In this document: positions 7,167 to 26,033 of the stretch, piece after piece | Numbering within the stretch: the first letter of the stretch is position 1 | Layout: each line of letters starts with the position of its first letter | Source of the DNA: Parcubacteria group bacterium GW2011_GWA1_40_21 | GTDB taxonomy: Bacteria > Patescibacteriota > Minisyncoccia > Phycocordibacterales > GWA1-40-21 | NCBI GenBank assembly: GCA_000996205.1 | Contig: LBYO01000003.1 | Span: 1-41,582 of the forward strand | Reading direction: 5' to 3' | DNA: 41,582 bases | Position numbers and translations under genes: made by a program | Notes under the pieces: model-generated | What the model was told of the DNA's origin: nothing | Seen by the model: only the letters and a program-made list of their open reading frames with translations | Database searches by the model: none

Positions 7167-7294
7167 CATTCTCTTTTTAAAAGACTTGCGCAGGAAATTA
7201 GAAAATAACAACTTTCTTAAGTTGATTATTTTATTGATTGACGAGCAGAGAAATCCGTCAGCTGACGGATATTCGTGCTTTTAAAAAGAGAATG
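7167..7294 (+). repeat. Structured hairpin element with an ATCCGTC-AGCN-GACGGAT core (member 1)
   Basis: Perfect 17-bp terminal IR; internal 7-bp hairpin at 7253-7270; core shared with 19242-19359. Confidence 0.8.
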
Positions 7295-7305
7295 TGAGCG
7301 ATCTC

Positions 7306-8019
7306 TCATTCTTTGCGCAGGGGCGCTTTTTTAATTATCTCAATTATTTCATCGTCTGAATCTACTATTTTATATAGATCCATATCATCTTCGTCAATAG
7401 CACTTATCTCTTTGAAGAGAGTTTCTCTGATGAATTCATCAACTTTGTCCCAGTGCTTCTTGCCGACCAAAACAATCGGAACTTTCGGTATCTTTTTTGT
7501 TTGGACGAGGGTTACTATTTCAAATAATTCGTCCATAGTTCCAAATCCTCCGGGGAAAAACAGGTAAGTCTCGGCGGAAAATGAGAGCATTACTTTTCTG
7601 CTGAAGAAAAAGCTGAATTCTCTGAAATTGGTCAAATATTTATTTGCCGGAAATTCTTCAGGAAGTTTGATTATAAGACCCAATGAGTCGCCGCCGGCCT
7701 CGAAGGCTCCTTTGTTGGCGGCCTCCATAATTCCGGGGCCGCCTCCGCTCACAACCGCGTAATTGAGCTCCTTTACTATTCTTGCGGAAAGTTCGGCGGC
7801 TCGCTTAAAATATTCGTTGTCTTCCGTAAATCTTGAGGAACCGAAAAAAGTCACGGATCTGGGATATTTCTTAATTAATTCAAAACCAGACTCAAACTCG
7901 CCATTTATCACAACCATTCTTTTTTTTATCGCTTCTTCAACTTTCTGGAGCGTAAGAGGAAGTTCCGCTTCACAGCATAGCTTTCGGTACTGGCTGATTT
8001 TTGATCCATTTTCTTTCAT
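7306..8019 (-). CDS. LOG family protein (TIGR00730, YgdH/PpnN-like)
   Basis: SVTFFGSSR, SGGGPGIMEAANKGA, FF.RK, PGGFGTMDELFE. Confidence 0.93.
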   Translation of the reverse strand: MKENGSKISQYRKLCCEAELPLTLQKVEEAIKKRMVVINGEFESGFELIKKYPRSVTFFGSSRFTEDNEYFKRAAELSARIVKELNYAVVSGGGPGIMEAANKGAFEAGGDSLGLIIKLPEEFPANKYLTNFREFSFFFSRKVMLSFSAETYLFFPGGFGTMDELFEIVTLVQTKKIPKVPIVLVGKKHWDKVDEFIRETLFKEISAIDEDDMDLYKIVDSDDEIIEIIKKAPLRKE

Positions 8020-8191
8020 AAATTTTATTTGCCCTTATGTATAAATATTATGCTATATATTAGCAGTTTTTTATTTTTTTGCATATTTGCGAAAAAAGGT
8101 GTGCGGATAAATATTATGTGATACAATTTCGGAAACGGGTTTGGTATGTATATTTATTTTTATTAGATAATAGTTTTATGCAATTATAAAT

Positions 8192-8623
8192 ATGAAAAAA
8201 AGAAATGAAATAATAGCGGTAGCCGTTGCTTTGGCGGCGGTGGGAGTATTATTTTTCTGGGGCAAAGGTTTTACAAATAAGATTAATCCTAACGATAACA
8301 ATAAAATGCAAGATGAAAATATTGTCGGCGATGGGGCGAAAGCGGGCGATGTGGTGACTATTCATTACACGGGCACTTTGGAAAACGGGACTAAGTTTGA
8401 CAGCTCGCTTGACAGAGGCCAGCCGTTTGAATTTACGCTCGGCGTGGGGCAAGTTATCAAAGGATTTGATAATGGCATACTCGGAATGAAAATCGGAGAG
8501 AAGAAAACAATCGTGATCAACCCTGAAGACGGATACGGCAGCGCCGCGGTCGGTTCAATTCCCCCGAACTCCACTCTTATTTTTGATGTTGAGCTGTTGG
8601 GTATCGCGCCGGAGAAAAATTAG
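8192..8623 (+). CDS. FKBP-type peptidyl-prolyl isomerase, membrane anchored
   Basis: [43 protein letters not shown]-terminal TM. Confidence 0.96.
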
Positions 8624-8698
8624 GACTTGGATGTTTAGCGAACTTATTCGTTCTAAACTTTGGTTTAATAAAACTTTGAATTGTGAAATACTATTTTC

Positions 8699-8771
8699 TG
8701 TCATTCCCGTGAATACGGGAATCCAGATTTAATCAAGGTTGAACTGAATTCCCGCTTGTGCGGGGATGACA
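8699..8771. repeat. 73-nt REP-doublet element (TGTCATTCCCG...GGGAATCCAG / ...GGGGATGACA), intergenic copy
   Basis: Two inverted hairpin arms with a 17-nt spacer; same length and layout as 23084-23156. Confidence 0.9.
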
Positions 8772-8782
8772 TAGTAAGAAAA

Positions 8783-24160: not shown

Positions 24161-24195
24161 AGTAAGCAGAGTTTCTCTAGACGGCGAGAATTTAA

Positions 24196-24228
24196 AAAGG
24201 ACTTTTTGATGTTATCAAAAAGTCCTTT
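24196..24228 (+). terminator. Intrinsic terminator
   Basis: aaaggactttttgat-gtt-atcaaaaagtccttt, a 15-bp IR. Confidence 0.8.
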
Positions 24229-24404
24229 CATTTTTATAAATCGAAGATTCGTTTAAAACCCAGTTTCAAGGTGAAATTTGACAAAATTAATTTTTTAATA
24301 TATTATTGTTTTGTTATTAAAAAAGCAGGTTATTCTCATTCGTTTTTGTTTTTAGGGAATTTTTTCTAAATATACGGAATCGTTGAGACAAATGCAGTAA
24401 ATAT

Positions 24405-25592
24405 ATGTATAGAAAAACATTCAATAGAAACACACAAAGTGGCGGACGGAGCCGTTTTGCTCCGCGGAAGAGATTTGAGCGCAAAGGGGCGCCGATTCAC
24501 ATATCTAAATTAGTGTGCAAGGCGGTAATTACCGAAGAAGCGGAGCATTTTACGCCCGAACATTCGTTCAGTGATTTTAAAATTGACGAAAGATTGAAAA
24601 GGATTGTCATAGCCAAAGGATATTCCGCACCGACTCCAATACAGGACAGGACTATTCCGCATATTTTGCATGGGCTTGATGTGGTTGGAATTGCAAACAC
24701 TGGCACGGGAAAAACTGCCGCCTTTCTTCTTCCTCTTATAAATAAAGTTCTTTTGAATCCGAAGGAAAATGTCCTAATAATGGCACCGACTCGCGAGCTA
24801 GCTATCCAGATTGAAGAGGAGCTTAAAAGTTTTACGAAAGAACTCAAAATTTTTTCGGTTTGCTGTGTCGGAGGCGCCAATATAGGACGCCAGATTGCCG
24901 ACCTTCGCTATCACAATAATTTTATCATCGGCACACCGGGAAGATTGAAAGATTTGATTCAAAGAAAAGTTTTAAGTCTCGCCGGGTTCAATACCGTTGT
25001 CTTGGACGAGGCTGACAGGATGCTTGATATGGGCTTCATCAATGATATGAGATTTATGATGGCGCAGATGCCGGCGAAAAGACACACTCTCTTTTTCTCC
25101 GCCACTATTTCCAAAGAGATTGAAGGCTTGATTAAAGAATTTCTCAATGAGCCGGTGCGGATTTCCGTGAAGACTCAGGACACTTCCAAGAATGTTGACC
25201 AAGATGTCGTGAAAGTTCAAAAAGGGAATAATAAGATTGATGTTTTGTCCCAACTTTTGGCGCAATCGGATTTTAGCAAGGTCCTTATTTTTGGACGCAC
25301 CAAACACGGAGTGGAGAGACTTTCCAGAGATTTAGCCAGCAAAGGTTTCAAGGTTGACTCAATCCACGGCGACAAGAATCATTCCAGAAGGCAGAAGGCT
25401 TTGAGCTTGTTCAAGAGTCATCATGTCAATATTTTGGTAGCGACGGATGTCGCGGCTAGAGGATTGGATATTGCCGGAGTGAGCCATGTCATAAATTACG
25501 ATATGCCGGCGACATACGAGGATTATGTCCATCGTATCGGCCGAACCGGCAGAGGAGATAAAAAGGGGAAAGCCCTGACATTTATCGAATAA
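24405..25592 (+). CDS. DEAD-box RNA helicase (RhlE/CshA-like)
   Basis: PTPIQ, ANTGTGKT, PTRELA, TPGRL, LDEAD, SAT, ARGLD, HRIGRTGR. Confidence 0.97.
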   Translation: MYRKTFNRNTQSGGRSRFAPRKRFERKGAPIHISKLVCKAVITEEAEHFTPEHSFSDFKIDERLKRIVIAKGYSAPTPIQDRTIPHILHGLDVVGIANTGTGKTAAFLLPLINKVLLNPKENVLIMAPTRELAIQIEEELKSFTKELKIFSVCCVGGANIGRQIADLRYHNNFIIGTPGRLKDLIQRKVLSLAGFNTVVLDEADRMLDMGFINDMRFMMAQMPAKRHTLFFSATISKEIEGLIKEFLNEPVRISVKTQDTSKNVDQDVVKVQKGNNKIDVLSQLLAQSDFSKVLIFGRTKHGVERLSRDLASKGFKVDSIHGDKNHSRRQKALSLFKSHHVNILVATDVAARGLDIAGVSHVINYDMPATYEDYVHRIGRTGRGDKKGKALTFIE

Positions 25593-25597
25593 CGAAT

Positions 25598-25786
25598 ATG
25601 AAAAAAAATACACCAAAAAAATTTCAAAAAAGAGGCCCCGGAATTTGGGTGGAAAGACCGCGCCGATGCGAGATTCTAATATGCCCGTGCGGGAACAAAT
25701 ATCTTAAAACCAGAGAAGGGCAGACTGTCTGCATCAAATGCATCAATAAATTGAAAGAGAAAGAAGCCAAAAAAGTTACCAAGTAG
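25598..25786 (+). CDS. Small basic Cys-rich (Zn-finger-like) protein
   Basis: 62 aa, CPCGNKY...CIKC; starts 5 nt after the helicase stop. Confidence 0.65.
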   Translation: MKKNTPKKFQKRGPGIWVERPRRCEILICPCGNKYLKTREGQTVCIKCINKLKEKEAKKVTK

Positions 25787-25802
25787 AAAGTTGTTAAATT
25801 GT

Positions 25803-26033
25803 TTGAATCGCAAAACTTCGTTATACGCGGAACACGCGTAATTTTCTGCTGAAAATTCGCTCTGCCCCGCCCGCCTTCGCCCCAATGCGCTATGTATTGC
25901 GTACTGCAAAAAGATTATAATACAAATGTGGAACTTTATTAAGATTATCACTGTAATCACTCAGGCATTGGCGGGCAGGTCGCGCCGCCGCGCTCCGCAA
26001 GTTTCCGCTCATAACGGAGTTTTGTGATTCAAG
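25803..26033 (-). repeat. Structured hairpin element (member 3) with a nested insert of about 113 nt
   Basis: Both ends match 19242-19359 on the reverse strand; insert 25867-25979 is bounded by ccgcccgcc/ggcgggcagg. Confidence 0.88.

Follow-up and report, generated by a model that had tools for sequence, protein, structure and literature searches.

Three structured loci in contig LBYO01000003.1 of Parcubacteria group bacterium GW2011_GWA1_40_21 (41,582 nucleotides, all of which were analysed and are called the window here) are probably non-coding, non-autonomous mobile repeats of modular build, similar to miniature inverted-repeat transposable elements (MITEs), in which a shared core is set in interchangeable palindromic shells. 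The family is a dispersed, multi-copy repeat found order-wide, the stems of its core are conserved in structure beyond sequence, and two of the three loci, members 2 and 3, belong to the MITEs of an IS982-like element. The genome, referred to as G000, measures 760,931 bp (0.76 Mb; 26 contigs, of which the window is C3) and was analysed within a set of 41 genomes of the same order, G000, G001, G002 and G003 being of the same genus; a further 150 genomes sampled across the phylum were searched for comparison. What moves these repeats? And what is their core for? The features on which the argument rests are these:

7160-7301, forward strand: member 1, a junction core in a 'GCGAGC' shell, with GAGCGAGC at 7160-7167 facing GTGAGCGA at 7294-7301
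19243-19359, forward strand: member 2, a MITE with the IS982-like terminal inverted repeat TTGAATCAC...GTGATTCA as its outer stem
19234-19242, no strand assigned: putative target-site duplication of member 2, left copy, ATATTTACC, with 7 of 9 letters as in the right copy
19361-19369, no strand assigned: putative target-site duplication of member 2, right copy, ATATTTATT, directly before the gatC start codon at 19371
25797-26036, reverse strand: member 3, with MITE shell and core as in member 2, plus a nested hairpin
25864-25979, reverse strand: the nested hairpin insert of member 3, about 116 nt, CCTGCCCGCC...GGCGGGCGGGG, delimited by alignment with short copies

A covarying core across an order

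Each member is built as a long closing stem around a branched interior. Their fold z-scores are -7.18, -7.04 and -5.71 (members 1, 2 and 3), and 0 of 200 dinucleotide shuffles per member proved as stable; minimum-free-energy folding of the flanks produced spurious pairing and was not used to define the ends of the elements. The parts listed in a preliminary description of this DNA (ACTTGCG, a variable arm, a CGAG..AGAG tract, and AC/GT pairs by a bulged G) are present at all three loci, and its covarying 7-bp hairpin with an AGCN loop, ATCCGTC-AGCT/AGCC-GACGGAT against AATTTTC-AGCA-GAAAATT, can be read at each of them. The same description held that the closing stem is replaced between members and stays paired. 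The stems do differ and do pair, as claimed, but the replacement is largely a change of shell, members 2 and 3 having the IS982-like inverted repeat.

The part that is alike across genomes is only about 73 nt long and has the shape of a three-way junction. The first helix ends in A-U and C-G pairs, followed by a bulged G; the second begins with U-A and U.G and bears a 4-bp GC-rich mini-hairpin, typically CGCG-ACGG-CGCG; the third, of 10-11 bp, has a bulged A and the AGCN loop. Two covariance models were used: R1, made from six copies and searched against the order at E up to 0.01, and R2, confined to the core and built on 45 distinct cores. Matches to R2 in the window are exactly three: 7176-7285 (+) in member 1, at 55.7 bits; 19265-19337 (+), inside the outer stem of member 2, at 68.1 bits (130.8 bits with R1); and 25825-25892 (-) in member 3. 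The closing stem of member 1 pairs 7167-7183 with 7278-7294 (17-nt arms, 100% complementary), and its second arm is a long, AT-rich hairpin. In member 2 the inverted-repeat pattern is found at 19346-19358; in member 3 the inverted repeats lie at 25804-25816 and 26019-26031.

Pairing was tested on the 45 distinct cores, with 23 pairs, against 500 shuffles and against partners slid by 1-3 columns; at the base of the second arm, where the pairing register is ambiguous, a single pair (U-A) was scored. Standard pairs fill 94.8% of the cells, compared with 74.1 +/- 0.8% after shuffling and 33-54% with slid partners. Moreover, 21 of the 23 pairs vary on both sides, and 0/500 shuffles reach any of the measures. 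The earlier proposal that structure is conserved over sequence is thus supported for the core stems. The unpaired letters near the junction, the bulges and the AGCN loop are themselves conserved across families of the order. No Rfam family covers these repeats: at gathering thresholds, the sole match to Rfam 15 in the search was a tRNA at 32050-32122, and around members 1 and 2, with E up to 10, there were weak matches only, far under the thresholds.

How large is the family? A simple pattern gave 8 matches in G000 (0 in the backwards control), and an nhmmer profile combined with inspection by eye sorted the copies into member 2/3-like, member 1-like, a core variant beside tRNA ends, and deletion derivatives. 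With R2 the core matches in G000 number 17. Beyond this genome, R1 has matches in 28 of the 41 order genomes and 15 of 22 genera, with a maximum of 23 in a genome of about 0.7 Mb (G014), and R2, under strict filters, has matches in only 4 of the 150 genomes from elsewhere in the phylum. What had been taken for a three-member non-coding RNA motif is instead a dispersed repeat, which some genomes have and others lack at orthologous sites, and the additional copies found in further genomes keep their pairing.

The fold has a strand. In 53 of 57 copies the model strand is the more stable of the two, on average by 6.5 kcal/mol; it forms 140 G.U pairs, the complement 53. In the 24-nt outer arms alone (46 distinct copies) there are 47 G.T against 27 A.C mismatches, and 72 G.A against 21 C.T. 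Because the usual deamination bias would favour the opposite strand, the excess is more simply read as selection on one folded strand. Copies are also oriented with respect to genes: of 54 called cases, 41 have the 3' neighbour on the opposite strand, its stop codon mostly falling at -10 to +26 nt, and the 5' neighbour is split 26 to 25, counts that come from 60 copies judged from open frames, not gene calls, and that overstate independence through the kinship of the copies, 20 of which are from one genome. The folded strand is therefore usually antisense to the gene whose stop codon adjoins it, member 2 being an exception.

Shells, insertion and turnover

Where do the shells come from? For members 2 and 3, both arms of the outer stem contain TGAATYRCRAAAC, a motif found 45 times in G000, 85 times in G001, 36 times in G002 and 45 times in G003. 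It is also found 26 times in G040, which belongs to another family of the order, compared with at most three times in each of the other 36 genomes (0-1 in the backwards control), and this sharing of the genus-type motif suggests horizontal spread of the insertion sequence together with its MITEs. In G001 (C39:27730-28728) two of the repeats lie 983 nt apart around a 251-aa frame that scores 77.2 bits with DDE_Tnp_1_3 (cut-off 27); the interior of this element is unrelated to the core. Inverted-repeat pairs in G040 and on contig C20 of G000 have ordinary genes between them and no transposase.

Around 30 small elements in G000 are bounded by these inverted repeats and have direct repeats of 7-9 bp at their flanks. 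The best 9-nt flank identity of 30 such copies was compared with that of re-paired flanks in 500 trials: the mean is 7.13, against 5.71 +/- 0.13 after re-pairing (maximum 6.07), and 23 of the 30 copies reach at least 7 of 9, for an expected share of 17%. Some flank duplications are perfect, e.g. AATTTAATA and AATAAATGT, and the length of the target duplication is about 7-9 bp. Members 2 and 3 are small, non-coding, multi-copy, and present or absent between relatives; since a transposase-bearing element has the same inverted repeats, and given the target duplications and the empty orthologous sites, they are MITEs of the IS982-like element. It follows that their shell is not a substrate of an HUH transposase, one of the readings offered in the preliminary description, because the outer stem is the inverted repeat of a DDE transposon with target duplications.

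Comparison of orthologous sites shows the repeats coming and going. The copy at C20:4875 in G000 is precisely absent at the same gene junction in G002 (C31). The member 1 site is empty in G003 (C28) and in G001 (C6), and a second G001 contig has the same kind of shell there with a different interior. At the member 3 site, the MITE shell recurs in G001 around a different interior that lacks the nested insert. No core is present at gatC in G001, G002 or G003. Further away in the order, one copy in G014 has no counterpart at the corresponding junction of any of the eight aligned genomes of its genus. For this G014 site, insertion into a pre-existing hairpin, or an inverted duplication of the flank, was considered and rejected, because the empty sites of the eight relatives hold neither arm of the outer stem.

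The shells are interchangeable. Member 1 and four near-identical sister copies elsewhere in G000 have the same core in another shell, the arms of which carry GCGAGC facing GCGAGC; these facing motifs are direct, not complementary, and can pair as G-C, C-G, G.A, A.G, G-C and C-G. In the G014 copies, the stem between the GCGAGC motif and the core, about 9 bp long, has a sequence of its own in almost every copy and is still paired. The same core is found in at least four shells, with further shells in G014 and G101, and variants of the third-arm hairpin are common to different shells and also found alone. Elements are nested as well: in G000, member 3 and one sister copy (C6:27063-27305) carry the 116-nt hairpin within the apical loop of the mini-hairpin, the small GC-rich arm of the core, and G101 has at the same loop an insert related to it. 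Four public DNA runs were compared at member 3, and contigs from three of them join 25863 to 25980 with AC between; because the shorter side spans only 22 letters, these contigs probably derive from other copies and not from an empty site specific to this locus. Lastly, a core variant is found at duplicated tRNA 3' ends in G000 (tRNA-Tyr), G128 and G174.

Several copies stand in settings that deserve a record of their own. At the tRNA-Tyr locus on contig C5 of G000 (L052:1224-1600), the 3' end of the gene (CAAATCCCTCCCTACGCAC) is repeated twice more downstream in direct orientation, and ahead of each extra copy stands a hairpin with a 5' arm reverse-complementary to this tRNA end; CCA terminates the last copy only, and the core variant is in the second unit. 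In the same genome, at C16 ~12870-12890 and C6 ~53980-54000, member 1-type copies are followed by GTTATCCACAGG, which includes a perfect DnaA-box-like TTATCCACA. A core-bearing copy in G014 (C1:274890-275012, L107) lies within a 307-codon open frame that fills the whole 921-nt stretch, and may be an in-frame gene insertion. G014 also has many copies of an unrelated three-armed hairpin repeat closed by a 24-bp stem (L131:2228-2373), which is precisely absent from G048 and G047, where the flanking genes overlap (TAATG).

Partners of the core and competing explanations

How would such repeats move and keep their core? Members 2 and 3 would be moved in trans by a DDE transposase, by cut-and-paste or by copying, with staggered cuts at the target. 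The core would be kept since a trans-acting protein reads one of its strands, folded and single-stranded. The stems could change and stay paired through the exchange of whole hairpin modules and through the copying of one arm from the other within a strand. Such arm-from-arm copying is known in E. coli as quasi-palindrome template switching.

Which protein might read the core? G000 has two RAYT-like Y1 genes and four small single-domain GIY-YIG genes. Both Y1 genes are flanked by palindromes other than the core; three of the four GIY-YIG genes lie within tRNA genes, and none is flanked by the core. Small GIY-YIG frames of 91-101 aa at C9:732-1019, C1:12025-12327 and C16:34747-35028 are situated inside or beside tRNA genes with partial tRNA duplications, and beside the C16 gene there is a tRNA gene within inverted repeats that resemble the stem of the nested insert of member 3. 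An autonomous version of the core was sought between close copies as well. This candidate was rejected, as eight pairs from five genomes enclose housekeeping genes (such as recA, yidC, nusG-rplK, mreC and tatD, named by eye from translations).

Several observations weigh against the reading of the loci as modular mobile repeats with a shared core. The 251-aa frame of G001 scores 86.6 bits with the IS982 NCBIfam model, under its cut-off of 130, so this transposase copy may be decayed, and an IS982-like transposase was not found in the G000 assembly. For the shell of member 1, no transposase, inverted repeat, parent element or target duplication was identified. The different interiors in the sister genome G001 at the member 1 and member 3 sites fit turnover in place as well as they fit repeated insertion. 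Palindromic DNA that is held symmetric by repair would likewise score as covariation, and the orientation bias (41 of 54) rests on open frames and on related copies. No protein partner of the core was found among the Y1 and small GIY-YIG families tested: across the 41 genomes the association of core and Y1 is loose (both in 23, core only in 5, Y1 only in 6, neither in 7), and small GIY-YIG genes are present both with and without the core and do not co-occur with it. In addition, DDE transposition needs no conserved internal fold, and so it leaves the order-wide conservation of the core, its strand asymmetry and its orientation bias without explanation.

Is the core then a site for an enzyme of its own? 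In a wider version of the HUH-substrate idea of the preliminary description, it might be a folded single-stranded DNA site of an HUH/Y1 enzyme, a tyrosine recombinase or a similar structure-specific recombinase or nuclease, which would insert the core by itself into hairpin tips and the ends of tRNA genes. This is possible, if doubtful. The fold is strand-specific with bulged bases, cores are found in unrelated shells, one and the same apical loop holds nested hairpins in two lineages, the core variant sits at duplicated tRNA 3' ends as integrating elements do, and copies on two large G014 contigs are biased in orientation. Yet the RAYT-like genes of G000 are flanked by other palindromes, G014 has 23 core matches and no Y1 gene match, G026 has 17 and no small GIY-YIG gene, close copies enclose housekeeping genes, and the one clean empty site without either outer-stem arm speaks against a hairpin that was there before. 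An unlikely extension of this idea makes the junction of about 73 nt the mobile or functional unit itself: folded as single-stranded DNA or RNA, it would be recognised by a protein of this Patescibacteria order, would nest in the tips of hairpins and at the ends of insertion sequences and tRNA genes, and would have its stems re-templated from one arm. A role for the core as RNA of the folded strand seems comparably unlikely. In that case it would be a protein-binding or processing element, e.g. a gene-end insulator that blocks read-through or antisense transcription, or a trans-acting small RNA, and the repeats would merely spread it. The conserved U.G wobble, the tandem G.A pairs and the bulged purines, all specific to a single strand, suit an RNA, as does the order-wide conservation of the core sequence, and a neighbour's transcript would include the folded strand in 24 of 54 called contexts (16 converging, 8 co-directional). 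However, in 18 tandem contexts, and probably in most of the 7 that are half-called, both neighbours are read from the complement, so that the folded strand would call for a promoter of its own; furthermore, member 2 cannot be a strong terminator, because it ends 5 nt before the gatC start codon. Overall, a structure-specific recombinase or nuclease acting on single-stranded DNA is somewhat likelier than an RNA role.

Could the core have no function at all? A selfish or neutral palindrome, with covariation arising from repair-driven symmetry and module exchange, would agree with the whole-hairpin swaps among near-identical copies, with the different interiors at one site in sister genomes and with the deletion derivatives. 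We consider it improbable, as duplex-level symmetry would leave the two strands alike, whereas G.U and G.A pairs are commoner on one of them, and as conservation across the families of the order extends to the unpaired junction letters, the bulges and the AGCN loop. Least credible by a wide measure is a cis-regulatory RNA, a leader or riboswitch of gatCA or of other neighbours. Member 2 does lie directly 5' of gatC on the same strand, but Rfam gives no match, the gatC loci of the three other genomes of the genus have no core, the neighbouring genes are functionally unrelated, and most copies are antisense and follow stop codons. The core is not a regulator specific to gatCA.

Neighbouring features and likeness to known systems

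The gene context given in the preliminary description, including the position of one member 5' of gatCA, agrees with the Pfam assignments. Flavodoxin-like and LOG-family genes converge on member 1, a SnoaL-like gene and gatC-gatA enclose member 2, and member 3, on the opposite strand, has a DEAD-box helicase gene on one side and an L25 gene on the other. The window also contains related hairpin MITEs without the core, and copies of the palindromes that flank the RAYT-like genes of G000:

4241-4350, forward strand: hairpin MITE without the core
30053-30176, reverse strand: hairpin MITE without the core
40917-41026, forward strand: hairpin MITE without the core
22202-22264: copy of a RAYT-flanking palindrome, CTGTGGGTATC/GATACCCACAG
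11477-11523: copy of a RAYT-flanking palindrome, TTTGGACATC/GATGTCCAA

The inverted repeats of the three core-less MITEs are the same as those of the core-bearing ones or similar (TTGAATTACGAAAC / CCAAATTACGAAAT), their interior differs (…TTGAGCAAAAAC…GCGACCCGAGGACC…), and their fold z-scores range from -8.5 to -13.7. The palindrome at 11477-11523 occupies a 167-nt gap between a frame ending at 11383, which may be rplK, and a frame starting at 11551. Intergenic arrays of 7-base repeats (AGGTTGT, AGGTAGT and similar) that form long imperfect palindromes are found at 4828-4909, 26775-26912, 28404-28507 and 28858-28975, and at 2515-2565 two 23-nt arms, 100% complementary and spaced by 5 nt, lie within a 690-aa open frame (2165-4237).

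Genomes of the Candidate Phyla Radiation are tiny and tightly packed, and G000 nonetheless carries dozens of structured repeats. A strand-specific core conserved across an order suggests a protein-nucleic acid interaction that is as yet unnamed. Should the core be a folded single-strand site for recombination or a nuclease, it could be a mobile module of a new kind and might serve as a tool in work on single-stranded DNA; should the junction itself be the mobile or functional unit, it would be a structure-specific mobile module of a sort not described for bacteria. On the practical side, elements placed at stop and start codons can be mistaken for riboswitches, small RNAs or terminators in annotation, and the IS982-like element with its MITEs offers a direct experimental handle.

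The repeats belong to the MITE/REP-like kind and are set apart by the conserved core; in the literature searched on the Candidate Phyla Radiation, on MITEs of Patescibacteria and on intergenic palindromic repeats of Parcubacteria, no description of such elements was found. ERIC/IRU and the Rickettsia palindromic elements are likewise imperfect palindromes of 100-150 nt in or between genes, with internal-insertion variants and some copies in open frames; the repeats described here differ from them in lineage and sequence, in their covarying junction core and in having a parent insertion sequence identified for one shell. Integron attC sites and the CTX phage attachment hairpin share the primacy of structure over sequence, the bulged bases and the strand specificity. 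Unlike attC, the stems as read here have no R''/R' end motifs, and the copies are dispersed instead of forming cassette arrays; adjacency to integrases did not turn up, although no search aimed at integrases was made. Ssn nucleases and their NTS/SRM repeats provide a case of oriented hairpins across a genome, the NTS being a simple hairpin of 28 nt (PMC11893778). The likeness lies in the oriented, genome-wide hairpin repeats and in the four small single-domain GIY-YIG genes of G000, and the difference in that these genes are not flanked by the core and that G026 combines 17 matches with no small GIY-YIG gene.

REP/BIME and REPIN sequences with their RAYT (Y1/HUH) transposases have in common with these repeats the position of intergenic palindromes just past stop codons, the mosaic, modular build, the orientation and the compensatory change of stems. 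In contrast to them, the present repeats are larger, at about 115-240 nt, are three-armed and in some cases have DDE-type inverted repeats and target duplications, and the RAYT-like genes here carry other palindromes and co-occur weakly with the core. Bacterial MITEs derived from insertion sequences, such as Correia/NEMIS of Neisseria and RUP of Streptococcus pneumoniae, resemble members 2 and 3 in being short, non-coding and multi-copy, with the inverted repeats of a transposase-bearing element, target duplications, empty sites and long hairpins. Unlike in those MITEs, the interior of members 2 and 3 is no deletion remnant of the parent element: it holds a conserved, strand-specific core that is also found, across the order, in unrelated shells.

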